Part shown: positions 6,047 through 24,563 of the stretch, piece by piece
Layout: the number at the start of each line of letters is the position of its first letter
How positions within the stretch are numbered: position 1 is the first letter of the stretch
DNA from: Candidatus Auribacterota bacterium
GTDB taxonomy: Bacteria > Auribacterota > UBA6266
DNA: 29,724 bases
Direction: 5' to 3'
Assembly: GCA_023136205.1 (NCBI GenBank)
Contig: JAGLRQ010000076.1
Span: 1-29,724, forward strand
The notes under the pieces: model-generated
Database searches by the model: none
Told to the model about the DNA's origin: nothing
Seen by the model: only the letters and a program-made list of their open reading frames with translations
Program-made: the position numbers and the translations under genes

Positions 6047-7495
6047 TCAAACAACATTCTTTTTAAAAACAGCTTCTTCAATACCGCTAATAATGTCCAT
6101 TTTCAACGCGTGAGGATTTGAAGGATTGAACATATATCTAAGTACCTGACATTTAGAAATTACCTGATCATAGTCCTTAATATCTTCTACATTACATAAA
6201 ACTATTTTAGTTATGGGAAATCTACTTTTTATTATCTCATTTATCAATCCCTGATTTATGATATTTGACGCGCGTTGAAAAATCACAGTTAAATATATAT
6301 TTAAACCGTTTTTCAACATATTCAAAGCTTCCCGCAGGTTATCCGCTATTTCTATGGTGAAATATTTACTTAAATTACTTTTTATTTTACGTAACGCCTC
6401 TATATCTTTACCAATAAACATGATAGGATAATTTTTATAGTCAATAGACGATTCAACGAGTTTAAAATTTTTCCTGTTTTTCTTATAATACTTTTGAAAA
6501 ACCTCAACCACTACAGGGTGAAATTGTTTGCCTCTACCTTTAAAAAGTTCTTCCATGGCCGATTTATGGGTAAGCGCGTCCCGATAAGGCCTGGGAGAGG
6601 TCATAGCATCATAGGCATCTGACACGGGCAGAATCCATGGAGCTATATTATCAAAGCTCTTTGAATTACCTTGCGCTTTTTTAGAAATTTCTTTACATTT
6701 CATACCATCAGGATATCCTTTACCATCATAATGCTCCTGATGGTGTAAAACAATTTCAATAATTTTTGTTAACCTGGGTATGGTTCTTAGAATATCCGCT
6801 CCCACTTTTGGGTGTTTCTTGAGTTCTTCGAACTCGTCCCGCGTTAATTTGCCCGGTTTTCTTAAAACCTCATCTGAAACAGCAATCTTCCCTATATCAT
6901 GAAGCAACCCGCTCATCCTGAGCGCATCTATTTCTTCTGATGAAAATCCCATAACTTCAGCCATTCCCGCGGAGTATTCAGCCACTCTCTCTGAATGCCC
7001 AAATGTATATCTGTCTCTGGCATCTAATGCCTTGGCCAGAGCTGTAATAGCCTGTATAGTACCCTGTTTTAATTCTTCATATAAACGCTTATTCGCGTCT
7101 GCTTCTCTTCTGAAATCTTCAAAAAGTTGCGCGCTGATTTTAGGAAGAGCTTCCTGTTCCAGTTTTTCATAGTCTAAAGGTTTTAAAAGATAATCATTAA
7201 CCCCCAATTCTTTCCCTCTCCGCATAGATTTTTGATCTGTCGCTTTACCCGTTATAATAATTACTTTAATAGTTTTATCTATCTCTTTTATTTTTTTGAA
7301 GACTTCGAATCCATTAAAACTTCCCGGAGCTAACATAACATCTAAAAGGACAAGATGAGGCCTTTCCTTCTTTATTATGGACAAAGCCTCCTCTCCTCCT
7401 GAAGCACCATATGTTTGATACCCCTTGCTGCTGAAAAAATTACACATTGTTTCCTGGATAAATTCTTCATCATCCACTACCAAAAGTTTAAGCAT
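6047..7495 (-). CDS. Response regulator with an HD-GYP c-di-GMP phosphodiesterase output and a C-terminal degenerate receiver-like domain
   Basis: REC domain: LLVVDDEE, HLVLLD(52)VML, IIITGKA, LLKPL. HD-GYP domain: GHSERVA, LLHDIGK, HHQEHYDGKGYPDG, DAYDAMTSPRPYR. Residues ~356-478 look like a receiver fold (IMFIGKD...REALNML...LTVIFQ...IVLCN...FNP) but lack the acidic pocket. AGGAG RBS present. Confidence 0.85.
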   Translation of the reverse strand: MLKLLVVDDEEFIQETMCNFFSSKGYQTYGASGGEEALSIIKKERPHLVLLDVMLAPGSFNGFEVFKKIKEIDKTIKVIIITGKATDQKSMRRGKELGVNDYLLKPLDYEKLEQEALPKISAQLFEDFRREADANKRLYEELKQGTIQAITALAKALDARDRYTFGHSERVAEYSAGMAEVMGFSSEEIDALRMSGLLHDIGKIAVSDEVLRKPGKLTRDEFEELKKHPKVGADILRTIPRLTKIIEIVLHHQEHYDGKGYPDGMKCKEISKKAQGNSKSFDNIAPWILPVSDAYDAMTSPRPYRDALTHKSAMEELFKGRGKQFHPVVVEVFQKYYKKNRKNFKLVESSIDYKNYPIMFIGKDIEALRKIKSNLSKYFTIEIADNLREALNMLKNGLNIYLTVIFQRASNIINQGLINEIIKSRFPITKIVLCNVEDIKDYDQVISKCQVLRYMFNPSNPHALKMDIISGIEEAVFKKNVV

Positions 7496-7519: not shown

Positions 7520-8629
7520 TCATACTGAAGCTACCACAGGAAGAATCACAGTAAAAGTACTTCCTTTTCCCACTTCACTTTTTAGATCCAACCTACCGCC
7601 AAAAGTCTTGACGATATTATCAATTATATAAAGCCCCATACCCATACCTTCGCGTTTAGTTGTATAAAAAGCTCCAAAAACTCTTTGCAAATTTTCTTCG
7701 GGTATTCCCGGGCCCGTATCCCTAACAGCTATGTGAACCCAATTATTATCTGCCTTTCCCCCGACGATAATTTTACCGCCCGTTTCACTCATAGCCTGAC
7801 AGGCATTACGAATGAGATTGAGGAATATCTCCTCAAAATGGACAAAATTGCCTTCCACCCTGGGAATGCCTTTAGCCATCCGCTTGCCAATTTTTATGTT
7901 AGTTAAAAGGGATTTGAGTCCATCTCTGGCCATCTCAATGGAACTATCCACAACCTTATAAATATCTATTTTTTCCACATGGCCGGGTTTAGAAAAATCG
8001 TTAAGCCGCTCTACAATCTCTTTTGAACGCTTCCCGTACTCTTTTGTCTTCGCTAAAAGCCTCATTATTTCAGGATCACGGAAGCCTTTCAGGCGCAATT
8101 CCTCAATAATTCTATCTATCCCAAGATTTACTCCTGAAATTGTATTTTTAATTTCATGTCCAATGCCGGCAGAAATTTCAGCAATAGTTATTAACTTTTC
8201 AGATTTTATCAGGGACTGTGTAGCCGCTTCTAAATCCTCGCTCATCTTATAATATTCAATAGCCTGTTTAATCATAAGGCTTATCTCATTCATCGCAAAA
8301 TCTTTACGGATATAACGATAGATATCTCCTTTATTTATCGCGTCAACAGCCACATCCATATCAGAATAAGCTGTAATCAAAATTCTTACAATTTTTGGAT
8401 GCGTCTCTTTAATCCGGCTTAGCAATTCTACTCCGGAAATTTCAGGCATGCGCTGGTCAGAGATAACCATAGAAATATCTTCTTTATTCACAACATCCAG
8501 AGCATCCTTAGCACTTGAAGCAGTAAACAAACTGTACTCCATCCCAAAAGCAAAAATCAGATTTTCCAGATTATTCAATTCATCATCAACTAATAAAATG
8601 TTGTAGTTTTTATAGTTCAGTTTTCTCAT
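7520..8629 (-). CDS. Receiver-histidine kinase fusion (REC + HisKA-like + HATPase_c), soluble
   Basis: REC domain: ILLVDDE, MVISDQRMPEISG, LITAYSD. H-box: SAGIGHEIKNTISGV. N box: LIRNACQAM. G1: VRDTGPGIP. G2: GMGMGL. No TM segments and no DNA-binding domain. Confidence 0.85.
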   Translation of the reverse strand: MRKLNYKNYNILLVDDELNNLENLIFAFGMEYSLFTASSAKDALDVVNKEDISMVISDQRMPEISGVELLSRIKETHPKIVRILITAYSDMDVAVDAINKGDIYRYIRKDFAMNEISLMIKQAIEYYKMSEDLEAATQSLIKSEKLITIAEISAGIGHEIKNTISGVNLGIDRIIEELRLKGFRDPEIMRLLAKTKEYGKRSKEIVERLNDFSKPGHVEKIDIYKVVDSSIEMARDGLKSLLTNIKIGKRMAKGIPRVEGNFVHFEEIFLNLIRNACQAMSETGGKIIVGGKADNNWVHIAVRDTGPGIPEENLQRVFGAFYTTKREGMGMGLYIIDNIVKTFGGRLDLKSEVGKGSTFTVILPVVASV

Positions 8630-8655: not shown

Positions 8656-11358
8656 TCACTTAGGCTGTTTAACCGGCAAAATCATACTAAACTCTGTTCC
8701 CTTATCAGGTATACTTTTTACATCAATCGTTCCATAATGGGATCGAATAATGTTATAACAGATACTCAATCCCAGGCCGGTATTATGGCCTTCCTTTTTA
8801 GTAGAAAAGAAAGGCGTAAATATTTTATCAAGATGCTCCATGGGAATTCCCGGCCCATCATCAGCTACGGTAATCAAAACTTTGTCTTCTTTTTGACTTG
8901 TCTTAATCCAAATCGTACCTTTATGTTTCATCGCTTGACAACCATTTATAAGCATATTCATAATAACCTGGTTGATTTCCTCTATTTTACATTCTATTTT
9001 TGTCAGCTTGCCGTACTCTTTACAGACAGTAATTTTATCTTTAATTGTAGGTAAAACAATATTAACAGTATTGTCAATGCCCTTGTTTAGATCACAAAAA
9101 GCCATGCCTTCTTTATTTTTACTGGAAAAATCCAGCAAGGAATTAATAATAAAAAGAGAATGTTCTATCGCATTATCATTGGTATCCAGCGCTTTTACAA
9201 GACTTTTATAAGCGTCCTTTATATCAAGCTTGCCTTCCGACAGCATAAACAAACGTTTGCCGATACCATCCAGTCCCGCCCGCAAACAGTAAATATTGTT
9301 TTTTATTTCATGCGCCACACCAGCAGCCAGTTGACTGGCGGACTCTAACCGCGCGGTATGCACCAATTGTACCTGGGCTTCTTCAAGCCTATGTAAAGTC
9401 TTCTTTAACTCCAGATTGCTTTTGTTTAATCGTGCCTGAAGTTCTCTTTTAGTCAATAAAGAATCTGTTACCGCCCGCAGCTCATTAGAATTAAAAGGTT
9501 TAGCAACATATTGATCCGCGCCATGCTTTAAACCTATAATTTTATCCTCAACGGTGGCTCTAGCTGTCAATAATATAACCGGCACATGCTGTGTCTGCTC
9601 ATTGCTTTTAATTTTCTCACATAATTCATTGCCATCCATCTCAGGCATCATCACATCTGAAATAACCAGGTCGGGTATTTTGTGTCTCACCTTATCCAAT
9701 CCCTGCCTGCCATTATAAGCAACAGACACATTATAGAATTTGTTTAAACTCCTGGCAATATTTCCGGACAAATCCTTATTATCCTCAACTACCAGAATAC
9801 TTTTTCGTTCCTTATTATCACTTACTTCTCCTTTCCCCTCTTCCGCAGAATACCCAGCTCCCTGTTCCAGATCGGATAGTTGAACCTGTAACAAACCGAT
9901 AGTTTCGCCGTCTTCCCTTTCCGTCTTCCGGCGGTCATCTTCTCTTCTCTCTTCCTCCCGCCGATTTCCGCGCCTGCGTTCTACGGATCCATCACTCATC
10001 TCAAATTCAGGCCTTTTATCAATTTGCTCCGTTGTAAAATGATCCTTACCCTTTAACAGCTTCACGGTAAAAATTGACCCTTTGCTTAGTTCACTTGTTA
10101 CGCCAACAGAACCGTGGTGCAGATTAACAAATTCCTTCACAAGGCAAAGCCCAAGGCCTGTGCCCTCATATTTGCGCGAACTTGAACCATCTACCTGGTG
10201 AAACCTGTCAAAGATATAAGGGATATCTTCCCGTGAAATCCCAATGCCTGTATCACTTACACTAACCTCAATATAATTTTCAGACTCCTGAGTCTTAACG
10301 TTTACTGTCCCGCCCCTATCAGTAAATTTCAAAGCATTGCTTATCAGGTTTGAAAAAACCTTTTCCACCTTTTCAGTATCCACATAAATCTCAGAAAGCC
10401 GGCTGGCCGGCTCAAATACTAAATTAATTCCCATTCCCTTAGCCCCTGCCAAAGCAGCTGCTATTATATCTTCCAGGATGCTATTTAAATTACTTGAGTC
10501 TACTTTTATCTCCATTTTTCCTGCCTCAACTTTGGAGATATCCAGTATTTCATTAATACGTTTCATCAATTTGTAGGCATTATTTAAAATCGCTTTCTTT
10601 TCATTCCTGTTCTCTGGAACTAAAGTTTCCCCGCGTTCTGCCAGTACATTTTGTATGGGAAGAATAATATTGGTCAATGGTGTACGAAGTTCATGGCTGA
10701 CTCTGGAAAAAAGCTGATTTTTGAGTCTATCCAGTTCCTTTAAATCATCTCTTGCTTGTTTAAGCTTAAATCGGGCCATAAATTCTTTGAAATGTAACCG
10801 TGAAGTAAAATAAGTCCCTACTACAGCTATAACCATCGCAGACAAAAGAAACATATTATTATTTATCAGCATCCCTATGTTCTTTACCTCATCATACAAA
10901 AATATTGGTATAATGTATGACGCATAGATAGCAAGGCATATAATCAATGTATACTTAATTCCCCATGGCACTAAAACTGCCATAGCCAAAAATACCAAAT
11001 TTAAACCAGCATAATAAGTAGACTTATATCCTCCAACAAAACGAATCATCAATGATATAGAAAAACCCACACACAAGAAAGCTACCGCCTCGATAGATAT
11101 TCCATACTTTTCAGCTTTATGAGTAAAACTGAAAATGAATAAAGCAACAACTACGGAGGTACAAGCAGCTCTGATAATCAATAACTCTTTCAGATATGCT
11201 GGGTTTACAAAATAGTCAAGGAGAGCAAATAAAGGAACAAGTGCAGATATAAGAAAACATGCAACTCTAGAAAAGATTAATGCCCTTTCTTTTCTATATA
11301 GGGCAAAACCATTTTTAATGTTTAATTCTTTTTCTGCTTGGGATAGAACAACACTCAT
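8656..11358 (-). CDS. Membrane sensor with two complete histidine-kinase cores separated by a receiver (TM sensor - HisKA/HATPase - Arg/Glu-rich linker - REC - coiled coil - second H-box/HATPase)
   Basis: About 6 closely packed TM helices in aa 20-190 with no large periplasmic loop. Kinase 1: FSRVSHELRTPLTN...DTGIGI...GTGLGLCLV. Linker: VERRRGNRREEERREDDRRKTEREDGE. REC: ILVVEDNKD, LVISDVMMPEMDG, ILLTARA, AKPF. Kinase 2: AAGVAHEIKNNIYCL...NGCQAM...DDGPGIP...GLGLSICYN. Confidence 0.85.
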   Translation of the reverse strand: MSVVLSQAEKELNIKNGFALYRKERALIFSRVACFLISALVPLFALLDYFVNPAYLKELLIIRAACTSVVVALFIFSFTHKAEKYGISIEAVAFLCVGFSISLMIRFVGGYKSTYYAGLNLVFLAMAVLVPWGIKYTLIICLAIYASYIIPIFLYDEVKNIGMLINNNMFLLSAMVIAVVGTYFTSRLHFKEFMARFKLKQARDDLKELDRLKNQLFSRVSHELRTPLTNIILPIQNVLAERGETLVPENRNEKKAILNNAYKLMKRINEILDISKVEAGKMEIKVDSSNLNSILEDIIAAALAGAKGMGINLVFEPASRLSEIYVDTEKVEKVFSNLISNALKFTDRGGTVNVKTQESENYIEVSVSDTGIGISREDIPYIFDRFHQVDGSSSRKYEGTGLGLCLVKEFVNLHHGSVGVTSELSKGSIFTVKLLKGKDHFTTEQIDKRPEFEMSDGSVERRRGNRREEERREDDRRKTEREDGETIGLLQVQLSDLEQGAGYSAEEGKGEVSDNKERKSILVVEDNKDLSGNIARSLNKFYNVSVAYNGRQGLDKVRHKIPDLVISDVMMPEMDGNELCEKIKSNEQTQHVPVILLTARATVEDKIIGLKHGADQYVAKPFNSNELRAVTDSLLTKRELQARLNKSNLELKKTLHRLEEAQVQLVHTARLESASQLAAGVAHEIKNNIYCLRAGLDGIGKRLFMLSEGKLDIKDAYKSLVKALDTNDNAIEHSLFIINSLLDFSSKNKEGMAFCDLNKGIDNTVNIVLPTIKDKITVCKEYGKLTKIECKIEEINQVIMNMLINGCQAMKHKGTIWIKTSQKEDKVLITVADDGPGIPMEHLDKIFTPFFSTKKEGHNTGLGLSICYNIIRSHYGTIDVKSIPDKGTEFSMILPVKQPK

Positions 11359-11367
11359 TTTTAAACC

Positions 11368-13167
11368 CTACCTAGAGAGAATTAGACAATTACACGTGTC
11401 TTTTAAAATTGCATGAAAAGAGTTCTTAAATTGCTCGTCCATAATTTCCAACCATTCCAGCATATCATCATTATCTCTGTATATTAAATACCAGTCCAGA
11501 GCAAGTTCCATATAAGCTCTAGAAGAATTCCCTGGAGCATATTGACCAATAATCAAGGTGCCATCCGAATCGAGCCTGTCAAACAGACTTTTTAAAACTT
11601 TCTTACAGACATTTTCACTTAGGTAATCCAGCAAACCAAGAGTATAAATAAGGTTGTACTTTTGCTCTGTTCGATTTTTAATCATGGATTTTATTGACTC
11701 GGCTAAAAAATTAATCTTAATAGAACTATTTCTCTTTCGCTTAAAAAGTTTCTCTTCTATATAAAATAAAGCTCGTTCATCAAAATCCAACAAGCAAAAC
11801 TCAGAGTTAACATTCCAACTATCTTCTTTAAGAAGACCTTCTACCTCTTTAGCTGGTCCACAACCTACACTCAACACCCTTAGCAAGCTATTCTCTTTCT
11901 TTAAAGACTGTTTACCCTTTTCTAAAATAAGATCTTTTATATATTTCGTTCTCAACCTCACCACTTGAGCCGCATCTACATTATAGCCATGTTTGCTTAG
12001 TAATTTTCCCAAGAGAGTTTCTCCATCATAAGCGTTTCCATTAATCATATTTATAATCCCATAGTCACCACTATATCCAAAAGGCCTATCAACAGCTCTC
12101 CTAATAAAAGGAGACTGGAGCAGTAAATGGTGTAATTGGTTCTGGAAATACTTCTTATGAATCTCATGTTCTTCCTTTTTTAAATTCTTTATCAGATCAT
12201 TTAATTTTAAAAACCAGGCATTCATTGTCTTTGTAAAAGATTTAATTACAGCATTTAGGATATCTTTTTCAATATTATGCTTTAAACCCAAATCTAAATT
12301 TGCCAGCCGTATTTCCTCTTTATTTAATTTTGCCTCTATGGATTCCAGATAATATCTCATATCCGCGACAATTTGCTTAAACTCTCCACTAACTTTATTT
12401 CCAATGGGCAGCATATGTAAAAACTCTTTGAGATCATTCTTTATATCCTCGCTCTTCCCCATATAAAGAATCTTGTCCACTTCCAGCATTGACTCTTCAA
12501 GCTTTAAACCCACCACCAACGCCCTGCCTTGTTCTCTTAAATCAATGACAGCAGCTCTGCCTTCATACACTTTTTTGTAGCCTATAACAACCTGTACATC
12601 CTCCAGAACCTCTCCTACCCTTAATGTCTCTGATTCTTCAATTTCAGCCTCTTTAATCATAAATGCCAGTCCATACTTGGAAAAATTTAGCATTTCATAA
12701 CTGTTATAAGTACCAGCATTATTTTTAAACGTAACTATCTTATTGATATTGCCTAATTGTTTATTACCGTAACGGGGAAGCCTGAAGCGGAGCTTTGCCG
12801 TTTGGCCGCTTACACTTTTTTTCCCGGCACCTGGAAAATGTGTATCTTTCACAAACTGCAAGCCTATTCTGTGGCTAATTCCCTCTTCATACACTTTTTC
12901 GCTATACACTACCATAGCCCGCGGGAAATAGGCCTTTCTACCGCCCTTAATTACGGTTATATCGGTTAAGGGAGTATTTACCAGAAAAAACCCCTCTTCT
13001 TCCGGCATAAGAAAAGATATCCCTTCATCGCTTATATCTATTATTTCCTTTTTAAACTTAGCCCCCTTTGGGATAGATAATGGAATTTCCACATAGTATT
13101 TCTCTGAATGATTTTCAAGCTTCAGCCGCTTGCTTTTTCTTTTGTCTGTCTTGTCCTTGGAAAGCAT
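11368..13167 (-). CDS. Tandem PilZ-domain protein fused to a class I SAM-dependent methyltransferase (possibly PhcB-like)
   Basis: aa numbering is from the track TTG at 13182. PilZ-1 has R15-K-S-K-R19 (RxxxR) and D49-I-S-D-E-G54 (DxSxxG). PilZ-2 has N166-F-S-K-Y-G171, but its upstream Arg motif (RFRLPR) is non-canonical. The C-terminal domain has RVLSVGCGPAKE (SAM motif I), LLDFDERAL and LIYTLGLLDYL, preceded by RPFGYSGDYGIINMI. The ATG at 13167, with GAAGGGG 5 nt upstream, is the more likely start; the track TTG is at 13182. Confidence 0.7.
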   Translation of the reverse strand: MLSKDKTDKRKSKRLKLENHSEKYYVEIPLSIPKGAKFKKEIIDISDEGISFLMPEEEGFFLVNTPLTDITVIKGGRKAYFPRAMVVYSEKVYEEGISHRIGLQFVKDTHFPGAGKKSVSGQTAKLRFRLPRYGNKQLGNINKIVTFKNNAGTYNSYEMLNFSKYGLAFMIKEAEIEESETLRVGEVLEDVQVVIGYKKVYEGRAAVIDLREQGRALVVGLKLEESMLEVDKILYMGKSEDIKNDLKEFLHMLPIGNKVSGEFKQIVADMRYYLESIEAKLNKEEIRLANLDLGLKHNIEKDILNAVIKSFTKTMNAWFLKLNDLIKNLKKEEHEIHKKYFQNQLHHLLLQSPFIRRAVDRPFGYSGDYGIINMINGNAYDGETLLGKLLSKHGYNVDAAQVVRLRTKYIKDLILEKGKQSLKKENSLLRVLSVGCGPAKEVEGLLKEDSWNVNSEFCLLDFDERALFYIEEKLFKRKRNSSIKINFLAESIKSMIKNRTEQKYNLIYTLGLLDYLSENVCKKVLKSLFDRLDSDGTLIIGQYAPGNSSRAYMELALDWYLIYRDNDDMLEWLEIMDEQFKNSFHAILKDTCNCLILSR

Positions 13168-13294
13168 AATGCACCCCTTCAACTTTTGATGTTAAAATCT
13201 CAAATAAGGACGCTATAAAAAAAAACCTAAGCGGTAATTTTAACATAATCAAGTACCTTTTTGAAGAACTAAACAGTTTTTTTACTTTGTAGTT

Positions 13295-15922
13295 CTATCT
13301 GCCGCCTTTATGTGGTTTAAGTATATCCAAAGCATATATCAGCTCTTCTTCCTTCGTATTTACTTCCCCGTCAAGTTTTGCCGCGAGGGTTTTGTTAAGA
13401 ACTTCTTTAAACTTCGGGGATGGTATCTTCCTCTTCTTTATCAGAGATTTCCCTGTTATCTGAAGTTTTACTTTTTTTAAATTCTCAAGGTAGTTTACTA
13501 TCCTCTGTTTAGCCATTCGTGAATCAGCCTTAGCAAGAAGAAAGAGCAAAATCTCAGTTGAACATATATTAAGGCAAAAATATATCTCACTGTTCTTTAA
13601 TTTTTTCTTCTGAGAAAGGTAGCTTAATCTTACCTTGCTATCTCTTTTCATAGGCACTATCCTGTCACTAACTTTCCTGGAAAATATGAATTTTTTACAG
13701 ACAACTTCGGCCTGTTTTATACTCAAATCACCTATAAACCCTAGAAAATACACAAGCCACGGAGTTATCCTGCCGCTAATAAATGAAAGGCTGTACCAGG
13801 AAAGTGTTTCTTCAATGTCTGAAAACATTTTCTCCGACCGGCTGTCAAACCTGATTGACGGATGAATAAACCTTAATTCGTTAAATTCGGCCATTCTTCT
13901 TATCGCGTTTACAGGTTTTGGCTCACTCAGAATAAGAACTATTTCGTTTTTGACCCTCTCATACGCCACTTTCTCGAACATGCCTATACTAACAGCATTT
14001 TTAATCAGGTTTTTAGTATGCCTGTCTATTTTAAACCCATACCTTTGTTCAAACCTCACAGCCCTGAAAATCCGCGTGGGGTCATCAACAAAACTGAGAT
14101 TATTAAGGACACGCACAACCCCGTCTTTAAGATCCTTTTGCCCTCCGAAAAAATCAATCAGTTCCCCAAAACCAACTTCATTTATTTTCACAGCCATTGA
14201 ATTAATCGTAAAATCCCGCCTGTAAAGATCGTGTTTTATCGAACTGTATTCTACTTTCGGCAACGCGCCCGGCTCCTCATAATATTCCGTTCTTGCGGTA
14301 GCCACATCTATCTTTTGCCCCGAAGGAAGAACTACAATAGCAGTAGAAAATTTTTTATGCGAAACAGTATGTCCCTTTAAATGCCGGGCAAGAAGACGGG
14401 CAAATTCAACTCCCCTATTTTCCACCACTATGTCAACATCAAAATTAGCAACCTTTAACAACAGGTCCCGCACTATCCCCCCCACAATATACGCCTTGCA
14501 ACCCATCGAATCCGCGACGCTGCCGGCAACACGCAGGATGTCACGGATACCGCCGGGGAAAAAAGTTTCTACCTTGTCTCTAACATCTCTTAATACAGGA
14601 GAGTTTCCTTCTTTCGCGGGCAAGAAGTAACCCAAATCCTGTTCATGCAGTATTTTTAAAAGGTCGTGCTTTAGTATCAAACCAACCAGCTCATTTCTAG
14701 AATTCACAACGGGAATAACAGCATGCCTTGTTTCATGCATTGAGTCTTTTATTTTCGGGACTTCATCGATCTCAGAAACACTCTTAAAATCAGGAGACAT
14801 ATAATCAGACACTTTTTGGGAACCAAGCCCGTGAAGAATGGCTCTATCCGCATCGTGTCTCGACATAAAGCCAACAACCTTTTTCCTCATAACAACCGGC
14901 ATTTCATCTACCGCATAGCGAACCATTAATTCCTTGGCATCTTTAATCTCCGTGCTTTTTGTAACTGATTTCACATGGGTAAGCATTATATCCTTCGCCG
15001 TAATTGGAAAGGACAAATATTGGGAAAGGGCATCTTTAAGTTTTTCCTTAGCCTCTACCAGTACAACCTTTTTTAATGTTACAGAGGCGGCTGAAGGATG
15101 CCCGCCTCCCCCGAGTTTCGCCAGAATTTTTGAAACATCAATACTGCAAACGCCGCTTCTGGCAATTACATGTACCCGGTTATTCATTTCAATAACCGCA
15201 AAAATAACATTAATATCTTCTACATCCCTTAATCTATGGACAACCATTCCCAGGTTGGGAACATGGCAAGAAGCAGAGGCCGATGCTATTGTAATATGCC
15301 AGTTGCCCATACGATGTTCTTCAGAACCATTAATCAATTCTTTCAGCAAAGCCATTTGCTCCGAATCAAGCCCGCCTCCCAGAAAAGAATGTATCATAGA
15401 GATATCAGCTTCACACGAAAGGAGAAAAGAAGCAGCTTTAAAATCCGCGGCAGTTGTAGTAGGATACGTAAAATGCCCTGTATCTTCATAGATTCCAATA
15501 AGCATAACCGTTGCTTCCACAGGCTTTATTTTTACTTTTTCCCGCATTAATTTTTTCACAAGTATTGTTGTGGTAGAACCAACAGGCAGGTAATTGTACC
15601 GGACATCTAAAGGCATATCTTTAGGTTTATGATGGTCATAAACTCTAACCGGTAAGTTATACTCCTGTATCCACTCAAACGGCTTTCCTATTCTTGAACC
15701 CGGAGCCGCATCCACAATGATAACTTCTGTAATCTTCTGGGGATCAGGTGTTTCCAGGATGGGCATCATAAGGCTGTTTCCGCACACGTTTAAAAAACAT
15801 TCAACATTTGAATCCATGGAAGCAGGCAACACCACTTTAGCATCAGGAAAAAGCTTTGACGCCGCCACTAAAGAGGCAAGCGCGTCAAAATCAGCATTAA
15901 GATGAGTAATGATTATTTTCAT
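13295..15922 (-). CDS. DHH/DHHA1 phosphoesterase - tandem CBS - class II tRNA nucleotidyltransferase/poly(A) polymerase family fusion (CCA-adding-type enzyme)
   Basis: DHH motifs: HLNADFDALAS, IIVDAAPG, VYDHHKP, YEDTGHF. DHHA1 motif: GGGGHPSAAS. Two CBS modules at aa ~310-430. Nucleotidyltransferase head: YIVGGIVRDLLL, NFDVDIVVE, RRDFTINSMA, DDPTRIFRAVRFEQRYGF. Confidence 0.8.
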   Translation of the reverse strand: MKIIITHLNADFDALASLVAASKLFPDAKVVLPASMDSNVECFLNVCGNSLMMPILETPDPQKITEVIIVDAAPGSRIGKPFEWIQEYNLPVRVYDHHKPKDMPLDVRYNYLPVGSTTTILVKKLMREKVKIKPVEATVMLIGIYEDTGHFTYPTTTAADFKAASFLLSCEADISMIHSFLGGGLDSEQMALLKELINGSEEHRMGNWHITIASASASCHVPNLGMVVHRLRDVEDINVIFAVIEMNNRVHVIARSGVCSIDVSKILAKLGGGGHPSAASVTLKKVVLVEAKEKLKDALSQYLSFPITAKDIMLTHVKSVTKSTEIKDAKELMVRYAVDEMPVVMRKKVVGFMSRHDADRAILHGLGSQKVSDYMSPDFKSVSEIDEVPKIKDSMHETRHAVIPVVNSRNELVGLILKHDLLKILHEQDLGYFLPAKEGNSPVLRDVRDKVETFFPGGIRDILRVAGSVADSMGCKAYIVGGIVRDLLLKVANFDVDIVVENRGVEFARLLARHLKGHTVSHKKFSTAIVVLPSGQKIDVATARTEYYEEPGALPKVEYSSIKHDLYRRDFTINSMAVKINEVGFGELIDFFGGQKDLKDGVVRVLNNLSFVDDPTRIFRAVRFEQRYGFKIDRHTKNLIKNAVSIGMFEKVAYERVKNEIVLILSEPKPVNAIRRMAEFNELRFIHPSIRFDSRSEKMFSDIEETLSWYSLSFISGRITPWLVYFLGFIGDLSIKQAEVVCKKFIFSRKVSDRIVPMKRDSKVRLSYLSQKKKLKNSEIYFCLNICSTEILLFLLAKADSRMAKQRIVNYLENLKKVKLQITGKSLIKKRKIPSPKFKEVLNKTLAAKLDGEVNTKEEELIYALDILKPHKGGR

Positions 15923-19944: not shown

Positions 19945-20666
19945 TTGCCAAACCCAAGCCTTAGAGCCAAAACTTCCGGTAAACCCGCATTAATAATCTT
20001 ATCTTGTGCAACCTTAAAATTATATTCACATCTCCTGAACTCCAGAAGCATAGTTTCGGTATCATAAAAAACCATACAAATTCTGGAATCTTCATCCCTC
20101 GGCTGTCCGACCGAACCCACGTTAATTATATATCCTGACTCTTTATTCAACTTCATGGCGGGGATGATTTCTTTTTTTACAATTTCATCCCCTACTTCCA
20201 AAACCATCGGAATATGTGAATGCCCTACAAAAACTATTTTTGCGTTAGCATGTTTGAATGTACTCGCGGCTTCTTCTTCACTAAATAAATATCTCCATTC
20301 TTCAGGCTTTGGAAGAGACGCGTGAACAAGGGTAAAACCATTTTCTTCATACACCATCGGGAGTGAGGAAAGATATTCCTTCTCTCCAGGATCAAGCTTG
20401 TTGTAAGTCCAAATCACAGCAGCAGCAGCTTGCGGATTAAAATTAGCATAATCCTGAACACCTGAAGCAGCAAGATCGTGGTTACCGGCTATAACAATAT
20501 CAAAGTTTTCTCTGGCTATCGTGATACATTCACGGGGATCCGCGCCATAACCGACAAGGTCGCCAAGAAAGTACACCTTATCAACACCTTTTTGTTTAAT
20601 TTCCTCCATAGCCCTGTGTAAAGCTTCCAGGTTACCATGAATATCACCAAGAAGGCATATCTTCAT
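19941..20666 (-). CDS. Metallophosphoesterase (calcineurin-like, YfcE/MJ0936-type)
   Basis: All signature motifs are present: LGDIHGN, GDLVGYG, GNHD, GHSH, GSVGQPRD. Confidence 0.8.
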
Positions 20667-21445
20667 TGGCTCTTGCCTAATTCTTTTTTTCTTCGATTGT
20701 AAAATTTTTCTACAACCTTTTTATGAGTCAGATCCTTATTATTAAGCGGTTCTTTTTTTTCTTTTTCATCAACTTCTGCCAGCAGATTCTTCCACACATG
20801 GAAACTTGCTTCCTTATCGCCGGAATCATAAAGAGCATGGGCATACATTCTCGAGACAAAAGAGGGGCAGTCAAATCGCGCCGCCTCAGCGAAATATCCG
20901 GCAGCTTCTTTAAAATCTTTCACCTTATTGAAATAAGTCCATCCTGTTTCAAAATATATATTGTAAACATCAGGATTGTTCTCTATCCCCAGCTTAAGGA
21001 AATCAAGGCCCTGCGCAATCCAGAAATGCTGGTCTCTCATCCTCTCTTGAACAGTCCTGCGCGGACTTACCCCTGCCTGGTAACAAATATTATAAGCCGC
21101 GTGCCACCCTCCCAGTATCCATACATTAAGAAAATTGGGCTGCAAAAAACCTATAGTCTTATAAAGAGGCAGGCATTTGTACCACTGGCCGTGATGCCAG
21201 TACTCATCAATTTGAAGCCATAAAATGTCAGCAGCAATACCTCTGAACCCGCCTAAAAGCATACCGGTAATTTCTTGTCCGGGATGCAGATATATGCGGC
21301 TGTGAAGTTTTTCCTCCACACGTATTTCATTAATCCCCTTAATCCCAATGTCAGGAGTTAACCTGAAACCGTTCTGCAAAAAATAAAGGCAAATTACAAA
21401 TACTGCCAAAACCAGAACAATCCATACTATCCTTAACATTTTCAC
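20663..21445 (-). CDS. N-terminally membrane-anchored helical-repeat (TPR-like) protein of unknown function
   Basis: One N-terminal TM segment (IVWIVLVLAVFVICLYFL). Then LLGGFRGIAADILWLQIDEYWHHGQWY and TPR-like helices (YFETGWTYFNKVKDFKEAAGYFAEAARFD...YAHALYDSGDKEASFHVWKNLL). Lys-rich tail. GTG start overlaps the upstream stop (GTGA); an ATG 6 nt downstream is an alternative. I do not recognise a family. Confidence 0.4.
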   Translation of the reverse strand: MKMLRIVWIVLVLAVFVICLYFLQNGFRLTPDIGIKGINEIRVEEKLHSRIYLHPGQEITGMLLGGFRGIAADILWLQIDEYWHHGQWYKCLPLYKTIGFLQPNFLNVWILGGWHAAYNICYQAGVSPRRTVQERMRDQHFWIAQGLDFLKLGIENNPDVYNIYFETGWTYFNKVKDFKEAAGYFAEAARFDCPSFVSRMYAHALYDSGDKEASFHVWKNLLAEVDEKEKKEPLNNKDLTHKKVVEKFYNRRKKELGKSQ

Positions 21446-24485: not shown

Positions 24486-24563
24486 TGGTCGGGGCGCCCG
24501 GATTCGAACCGGGGGCCTCAGCGTCCCGAACGCTGCGCGCTAACCAGACTGCGCTACGCCCCG
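24486..24563 (-). tRNA. tRNA-Pro (anticodon CGG), 78 nt with genomically encoded CCA
   Basis: The reverse complement folds by hand into a cloverleaf: acceptor CGGGGCG/CGCCCCG; D-arm GCGC-AGTCTGGTTA-GCGC; anticodon arm CAGCG-TTCGGGA-CGCTG (anticodon CGG); variable loop AGGCC; T-arm CCCGG-TTCGAAT-CCGGG; discriminator A; CCA. Confidence 0.95.

Follow-up and report, generated by a model that had tools for sequence, protein, structure and literature searches.

What governs a methyltransferase that is preceded by two PilZ-type barrels, and what does it make? The question is raised by a gene on contig JAGLRQ010000076.1 (NCBI GenBank assembly GCA_023136205.1) of Candidatus Auribacterota bacterium (GTDB lineage Bacteria; Auribacterota; UBA6266), of which we analysed positions 1 to 29,724, here called the window. 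An initial annotation, made from the letters of the DNA, had described its product as tandem PilZ domains fused to an S-adenosylmethionine (SAM)-dependent methyltransferase and as a candidate small-molecule methyltransferase gated by cyclic di-GMP (c-di-GMP). Two PilZ-type barrels followed by a helical region and then by a Rossmann SAM methyltransferase: this architecture survived all computational tests run, as did, on the same tests, its status as a candidate. We propose, with a probability of roughly 0.55, that the gene encodes a PhcB-family methyltransferase acting as a c-di-GMP-gated signal synthase, possibly within a feedback loop. In Ralstonia, PhcB synthesises the quorum signal, which is a 3-hydroxy-fatty-acid methyl ester (methyl 3-hydroxymyristate or 3-hydroxypalmitate).

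Domain architecture and PhcB-type homology

The open reading frame (ORF) first delimited at 11368–13182 exists, and every motif quoted from it is present in its translation: RKSKR at residues 15–19, DISDEG at 49–54 and NFSKYG at 166–171 when counted from the TTG at 13182, together with RFRLPR, RPFGYSGDY, VLSVGCGPAKE, LLDFDE and LGLLDYL. Its strand, on which the initial annotation was silent, is minus, and its start almost certainly lies five codons further in, at ATG 13167, since a Shine–Dalgarno sequence (GAAGGGG, 13174–13180) stands at the right distance, 6 nt 5′ of this codon, and homologues begin at the equivalent Met (MLSKDKT or MLSRNET). The TTG itself adjoins this ribosome-binding site. 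True residue numbers are therefore those given earlier minus five, and we number from the ATG unless TTG is stated. The gene and its parts are:

11368–13167, minus strand: PilZ–PilZ–PhcB-type methyltransferase gene, 599 aa, ATG at 13167, stop at 11368–11370
12847–13143, minus strand: barrel 1, canonical PilZ, aa 9–107 (Pfam PF07238, motifs, AlphaFold2, Foldseek)
13126–13140, minus strand: RxxxR motif of barrel 1, RKSKR, aa 10–14
13021–13038, minus strand: [D/N]hSxxG motif of barrel 1, DISDEG, aa 44–49
12751–12846, minus strand: inter-barrel linker, aa 108–139, predicted to be disordered (predicted local distance difference test, pLDDT, <50)
12769–12783, minus strand: RLPRY, an invariant hRxxR[Y/F] motif near the linker end, aa 129–133
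12484–12750, minus strand: barrel 2, divergent PilZ-like, aa 140–228, counterpart of the ordinary PhcB-type N-terminal domain
12670–12687, minus strand: NFSKYG of barrel 2, aa 161–166
11899–12483, minus strand: all-helical, PhcB-family-specific region, aa 229–423 (AlphaFold2 helices 230–423 at pLDDT ~90)
12061–12087, minus strand: RPFGYSGDY, aa 361–369, a near-invariant (K/R)P(F/L)GY(S/A)GDY motif
11371–11898, minus strand: class I (Rossmann) SAM-dependent methyltransferase, aa 424–599 (Pfam, Foldseek)

The fusion is not an assembly chimera, which is ruled out by the occurrence of the same architecture in at least 11 independent assemblies; one family member (P0003) is 100% identical to the protein of the window.

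Barrel 1 passes the Pfam PilZ model with 23.4 bits against a gathering cut-off of 22.5 (aa 14–112 in TTG numbering) and 22.7 bits in isolation, and the C-terminal domain passes Methyltransf_31 with 27.8 bits against 27 (aa 427–544), Methyltransf_25 and Methyltransf_23 being sub-threshold. Both scores are marginal and independent evidence was therefore sought. The canonical PilZ pair that had been recognised in barrel 1 (RKSKR...DISDEG, the last Arg and the Asp being 30 residues apart) is conserved across 36 two-barrel relatives of 24–71% identity, in which R10 is kept in 32, R14 in 33 and G49 in 35, and D44 is Asp or Glu in all. In the region of barrel 2, R129, R132 and S163 are each found in 36/36 and N161 is Asn or Asp in 36/36. 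These motif residues rank among the best-conserved positions of the N-terminal 232 residues, whose mean top-residue frequency in the same relatives is 0.42. Barrel 2 had been suspected of being degenerate, with its Arg motif off-register. Its Arg motif is indeed RxxR and it has no Pfam PilZ match, but its motif residues do not vary within the clade and exceed those of barrel 1 in conservation, and by this measure it is a conserved PilZ variant, not simply a degenerate one. The last Arg of its motif precedes N161 by 29 residues, akin to the 30-residue spacing of barrel 1, and the equivalent barrel of one relative (P0090) does pass Pfam PilZ with 34.9 bits. As judged from their profiles, the two barrels are homologous with their motifs in register: hhalign pairs barrel 1 with barrel 2 at a probability of 97.6% (E 4e-12), aligning DISDEG to NFSKYG. 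Across the family, 36 of the 48 N-terminally extended members match Pfam PilZ, the best at 2.6e-23.

The AlphaFold and Foldseek check suggested with the initial annotation was run, and the N-terminal modules were modelled as PilZ-type barrels, with two-domain PilZ receptors as the only best matches. Full-length AlphaFold2, using a 12-sequence alignment (mean pLDDT 77), placed six-stranded barrels at 24–105 and 143–223, the helical region at 230–423 and then the Rossmann domain; in a separate model of residues 1–232 (pLDDT 65; barrels 65–82), residues 1–20 and 108–139 were disordered. When the latter model was compared with the PDB, all 18 Foldseek matches at E ≤0.001 were PilZ proteins, comprising VCA0042/PlzD (E 3e-7), MrkH, PlzA, YcgR, MotI and PP4397 as well as the isolated YcgR PilZ domain. 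Alignments to two-domain receptors spanned 210–263 columns (210–230 for YcgR-type structures), and single PilZ domains (YcgR, PA PilZ, Alg44, BcsA and PA0012) gave target-normalised template modelling (TM) scores of 0.52–0.67 with root-mean-square deviations of 3.3–4.9 Å. A profile search of the PDB by sequence returned no match for the N-terminal module, and with the full-length profile only generic methyltransferases, the family having no solved structure.

Downstream of barrel 1 the protein is, by homology, a PhcB-type enzyme. Residues 140–573 align with residues 6–439 of a 464-aa protein of Cupriavidus necator (P0275; BLASTP, 25% identity, E 3e-46), and tblastn against Paraburkholderia graminis gave E 2e-37. 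The segment between the barrels and the methyltransferase, previously taken for a helical linker of ~150 aa, is not a linker: it aligns along its length with the Cupriavidus protein and, with barrel 2 and the methyltransferase, makes up a complete PhcB-type protein. Within it P362, Y365, G367 and D368 are invariant in the homologue alignment. The Rossmann SAM methyltransferase assigned to the C-terminus is borne out both by the above-threshold Methyltransf_31 match and by Foldseek, whose best matches are small-molecule O-, C- and N-methyltransferases at a probability of 1.0. Its SAM-binding motifs are intact, with motif I (VLSVGCGPAKE), the acidic loop (LLDFDE) and motif IV (LGLLDYL) represented in the alignment by invariant GCGPAxE, LLDFD and GLxDYL, including the invariant residues C436, G437, E441, D461, F462, G511, D514 and Y515. 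The sole NCBIfam match, CpaM, was rejected (21 bits against a threshold of 180).

The distribution of the architecture, a survey of which had been called for, was examined with a profile search of 1.84 billion representatives, which found 1755 proteins at E ≤1e-30. Of the 161 best representatives, 99 are ~470 aa long and match only profile positions ~140–598 (one barrel, helical region and methyltransferase), and about 35, apparently all of them from bacteria not in culture, have the extra N-terminal barrel; the two-barrel members looked up are metagenome singletons. Three family members (P0010, P0015 and P0017) and the beta-proteobacterial group bear the JGI name extracellular factor (EF) 3-hydroxypalmitic acid methyl ester biosynthesis protein (PhcB). 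The substrate had been held unreadable from the sequence. This now seems too cautious, because a complete PhcB-type body and the operon context described below allow its class to be inferred: the enzyme probably serves signal synthesis of the 3-hydroxy-fatty-acid methyl-ester type.

Operon and neighbouring signalling genes

Three signalling genes follow the methyltransferase gene at short distances, and a promoter-like site falls in the 127-bp gap 5′ of the operon:

13237–13265, minus strand: promoter-like site, TTCAAA-17-TAAAAT with TG (consensus scan only, 9/12 matches, weak)
8656–11358, minus strand: hybrid kinase, 900 aa, 9 bp 3′ of the methyltransferase gene (Pfam)
7520–8629, minus strand: REC and histidine-kinase-like protein, 369 aa, PhcR counterpart, after a 26-bp gap (Pfam REC and HATPase_c)
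6047–7495, minus strand: REC-HD-GYP regulator, 482 aa, of RpfG-type architecture, after a 24-bp gap (Pfam REC and HD_5/HD)

The hybrid kinase consists of a MASE8 membrane sensor, HisKA and HATPase (PhcS-like), a charged linker, REC and a second kinase core (PhcR-like). Its residues 18–438 align with the whole of the Cupriavidus PhcS-like kinase (E 2e-23) and residues 516–900 are 30% identical to the product of the next gene (E 1e-42), as would result from duplication of a PhcR-like gene and its fusion to a PhcS-like kinase; the same 890–900-aa layout occurs at two other loci (L004 and L011). Between the first core and REC, at aa ~440–515, lies a highly charged, Arg/Glu/Asp-rich low-complexity stretch (RRRGNRREEERREDDRRKTERED). 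The 369-aa protein matches its PhcR-like counterpart of Cupriavidus from end to end (E 2e-31) and has the H-box SAGIGHEIKN. The REC-HD-GYP protein scores 116 bits for HD_5, with HD at 199 and HQEHYDGKGYP at 252–262, the HD-GYP consensus being HHExh(D/N)GxGYP (bioRxiv 10.1101/2021.11.05.467447); its tail (aa 358–479) has no Pfam call, weakly resembles the Cupriavidus PhcQ-like receiver (E 1e-4) and may be a pseudo-receiver.

In Cupriavidus the order is methyltransferase, MASE8-HisKA-HATPase kinase, REC-HisKA-HATPase protein and REC protein, which matches the domain make-up described for phcB, phcS, phcR and phcQ (PMC8578825). The trio of methyltransferase, MASE8 kinase and REC-kinase genes is kept, with differing flanks, in homologues of 71%, 58%, 48% and 32% identity, and in a tblastn survey of 91 loci practically all those of sufficient length had the MASE8 kinase directly downstream and the REC-kinase after it. 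The surveyed loci belong to Verrucomicrobiota, Polyangiaceae/Myxococcota, FCPU426, Nitrospirota, Binatia and gamma- and beta-proteobacteria; relatives in other phyla, closer than Ralstonia, made up the best 80 loci of the genome scan, which had more than 572 species-level genomes among its matches. When the Paraburkholderia protein was the query, Cupriavidus, Massilia and Paraburkholderia were among the best 120 homologues and Ralstonia was not.

Proposed gating by c-di-GMP and its alternatives

In the mechanism that we favour, c-di-GMP would bind the PilZ module of the N-terminus through barrel 1, and possibly also through a linker/barrel-2 site as in YcgR-type proteins, where the Arg-rich segments that precede each barrel (disordered in the apo model, as expected for an unliganded PilZ) would wrap the nucleotide. 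Binding would re-orient the barrels or fix them against the helical and methyltransferase body and so alter the rate of signal synthesis, any sign given to this regulation being conjectural. The diffusible product would be sensed by the co-transcribed, PhcS-like MASE8 hybrid kinase, which would pass phosphate to the PhcR-like REC-kinase and, in this lineage, to the REC-HD-GYP regulator; the latter, if an active c-di-GMP phosphodiesterase, would feed back on the synthase via the c-di-GMP level.

Several points weigh against this proposal. Members with this architecture are known from sequences and predicted structures. The Pfam PilZ score of barrel 1 is barely above threshold; in barrel 2 the Arg motif, hRPxR[Y/F], is one residue shorter than RxxxR, and barrel 2 alone (aa 119–235) has no Pfam PilZ match, its clade consensus reaching 15.3 bits against 22.5. 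AlphaFold2 confidence for the barrels is moderate (pLDDT 60–80). At about 25%, identity to the PhcB-type proteins of beta-proteobacteria is low, Cupriavidus and Paraburkholderia homologues and KO-based names provide the link to the Ralstonia enzyme that has been characterised, and the chemistry of the PhcB family is known within Burkholderiales, outside which the host lies. As for the proposed loop, the HD-GYP neighbour may be inactive as a c-di-GMP phosphodiesterase because its HHE motif reads HQE, and among the 91 loci its gene occurs only here and in the relative of 71% identity (L001/L002). Neither a diguanylate cyclase nor a LysR/PhcA-type regulator gene is present among the ORFs of the 29.7-kb window; phcA is not known to be adjacent to phcBSRQ in Ralstonia either.

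The alternative that survives best, though we think it somewhat unlikely, is that the PilZ-derived barrels no longer sense c-di-GMP and are instead structural, dimerisation or substrate- or partner-docking domains of a PhcB-type enzyme, as in non-binding xPilZ or PilZN domains, the enzyme being constitutive or otherwise controlled. Typical PhcB-type proteins retain a barrel that lacks both c-di-GMP motifs (its consensus is roughly xLxRhTRHxVVF), so that the barrel presumably has some role independent of c-di-GMP. The non-canonical RxxR of barrel 2 and its failure to match Pfam point the same way, as do the Glu that replaces the barrel 1 Asp in a third of the two-barrel relatives and the frequent replacement of its Ser, and many PilZ-related domains have lost binding (Galperin & Chou). 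Against this, the Arg pair and Gly of barrel 1 are kept in 32–35 of the 36 relatives, down to 24% identity, and the motif residues of barrel 2 are invariant, such conservation in disordered segments being hard to explain without a ligand.

It is considerably less probable that the PilZ module does bind c-di-GMP but targets the adjacent two-component proteins, docking on a REC or kinase domain as HapZ does on SagS and so linking c-di-GMP to the phosphorelay. Tight coupling to the neighbouring kinases, one a hybrid with two kinase cores and the other a REC-kinase, would suit such a role; HapZ–SagS and MapZ–CheR1 are instances of PilZ proteins acting on signalling partners in trans, and possible contacts between receivers and PhcB have been raised (PMC6989110). 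However, the PilZ module is covalently joined to the enzyme, and in some relatives REC takes its place; both facts favour control in cis, and our analysis gave no sign of any protein–protein contact.

An equally improbable reading, that PhcB likeness reflects a shared fold only and the enzyme methylates a protein or another metabolite (for instance as a CheR-like enzyme modifying the neighbouring sensor), draws on a weak match to the CheR SAM-binding domain (18.7 bits against a cut-off of 27), on the confinement of known PhcB chemistry to Burkholderiales and on the lack of a solved structure for the family, but the CheR match spans only ~50 residues of the generic SAM-binding fold, PhcB-type similarity extends from the barrel through the helical region to the methyltransferase and takes in the family-specific KPxGYxGDY, the gene order is shared too, and the best structural matches are small-molecule methyltransferases. 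A CheR-type protein methyltransferase was accordingly rejected as the primary reading, the weak Pfam matches covering the generic SAM-binding part only.

Relatives of the protein bear on the possible origin of its N-terminus. In a neighbour-joining tree of the helical and methyltransferase region, 34 of 36 two-barrel proteins fell into one clade of 61 sequences. Among 24 other extended or single-barrel relatives, mostly of that clade, [N/D]xSxxG is kept in 23 and the RxxR[Y/F] linker in 17, the remainder being gapped or divergent there. One relative (P0018) has a third PilZ at its N-terminus (82.7 bits) and another (P0141) a REC domain at the same position; the presence there of REC or of up to three PilZ domains speaks for a regulatory role of the N-terminus. 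Barrel 2 matched the N-termini of beta-proteobacterial PhcB-type proteins in hhalign (97.8%, E 8e-13), and a direct link from barrel 1 failed (1.3% with the beta-proteobacterial set, 39% with the strict core set), so PilZ ancestry of the PhcB N-terminus would be transitive, via barrel 2. The PhcB N-terminal domain may accordingly be a degenerate PilZ barrel, which fits the effect of R22C in Ralstonia PhcB, a substitution outside the methyltransferase domain that lowers signal synthesis (PMC6989110). The same paper notes PhcB homologues in Cupriavidus and Paraburkholderia.

A bolder version of the proposal, which we put forward tentatively, is that the locus could form a self-contained circuit in which quorum sensing and c-di-GMP directly control each other, through a PilZ-gated synthase and a cascade whose final member, an HD-GYP phosphodiesterase, resets c-di-GMP. 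If so, every PhcB enzyme, that of Ralstonia included, might carry as its N-terminal domain a degenerate PilZ barrel inherited from a c-di-GMP-gated ancestor.

Relation to known systems and genomic surroundings

As in beta-proteobacterial PhcB-type systems, barrel, helical region and SAM methyltransferase are collinear, and genes for a MASE8-type sensor kinase and then a REC-kinase come next, like phcS and phcR. Unlike them, the present locus adds an N-terminal canonical PilZ, fuses the kinase to a second REC-kinase module, has REC-HD-GYP rather than PhcQ as its fourth gene and lies, at ~25% identity, in a candidate phylum (Ca. Auribacterota) of the Planctomycetes–Verrucomicrobia–Chlamydiae (PVC) group; its barrel 2 also keeps the PilZ-like RxxR...[N/D]hSxxG signature that typical PhcB has lost, which with the added PilZ is what is unusual here. 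Two consecutive barrels with a flexible Arg-bearing linker and [D/N]hSxxG are shared with YcgR, PlzD/VCA0042, MotI/DgrA, PlzA, MrkH and PilZ–PilZ tandems, the best structural matches. In those receptors the canonical barrel is the C-terminal one, the N-terminal barrel being without its former motifs, whereas here the canonical barrel comes first and RxxR belongs to the second; nor are they joined to an enzyme of this type, being stand-alone adaptors or transcription factors.

MapZ–CheR1 of Pseudomonas aeruginosa likewise ties a PilZ domain to control of a SAM-dependent methyltransferase by c-di-GMP (here proposed), but MapZ is separate and acts in trans on a protein (chemoreceptor) methyltransferase, whereas PilZ here would act in cis on a putative small-molecule methyltransferase. 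The Rpf/diffusible signal factor (DSF) system of Xanthomonas (RpfF, RpfC and RpfG) resembles the proposed circuit in that a hybrid kinase senses a diffusible signal of fatty-acid type and has a REC-HD-GYP regulator as its output. In Rpf the REC-HD-GYP output lowers c-di-GMP and the sensing pathway controls the synthase, but this feedback is by protein–protein binding, with no c-di-GMP-binding domain on the synthase; RpfF is moreover a crotonase-type enzyme, not a methyltransferase.

Consistent with the initial annotation, which knew of no characterised PilZ–methyltransferase fusion, none was found in the searchable literature, most subscription journals excluded: full-text searches that paired PilZ with either PhcB or methyltransferase domains yielded nothing pertinent, which is absence of evidence only. 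An analysis of PilZ architectures (Galperin & Chou) and a 2025 effector review mention no other example than MapZ, which acts on CheR1 in trans. Each component, the PilZ receptor and the phcBSR-type module, is already known, and the new part would be their combination. The links that we found between quorum sensing and c-di-GMP run from the signal to c-di-GMP enzymes or transcription factors; a synthase with its own c-di-GMP receptor would, if confirmed, be the reverse arrow, built into the protein, and would add signal-biosynthesis enzymes to the list of PilZ outputs. It would also suggest a specific and testable explanation of the PhcB N-terminal domain, where mutation already alters signal output, in an enzyme that controls virulence in the bacterial wilt pathogen.

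In the surveys, phcBSR-like trios (L012–L088) were plentiful beyond Burkholderiales, especially in Verrucomicrobiota, Polyangiaceae and candidate division FCPU426. Within the same searchable literature, no paper was found tying PhcB homologues to Verrucomicrobia or describing such trios outside Burkholderiales. Because phcBSR-type modules are not confined to Burkholderiales but common in Verrucomicrobiota, Myxococcota and several candidate phyla, they suggest a widespread, unexplored signalling chemistry. In Paraburkholderia graminis a phcBSRQ-like cluster (L089) resides on the 494-kb conjugative plasmid pPHS1_P (432595–436970), with a bare 134-aa receiver as its third gene in place of the REC-kinase.

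Rfam and tRNA scans of the window gave nothing relevant to the locus and no c-di-GMP riboswitch. All Pfam-supported genes of the window (1–29724) are on the minus strand, as is tRNA-Pro(CGG) at 24486–24563; the ORF at 20663–21445 has no Pfam match. The flanks are housekeeping in character, with trpS, scpA/B, pheA, ligA, an xerC/D-type recombinase, lpxA, a lipid A acyltransferase and ABC-2 transporters. Directly upstream of the operon (13295–15922, minus strand) is a gene for an 875-aa fusion of a DHH/DHHA1 phosphoesterase, two CBS domains and a poly(A)-polymerase/CCA-adding head with an RNA-binding domain, and the same gene, partly captured, lies upstream of the methyltransferase gene in the 71% relative (L001).

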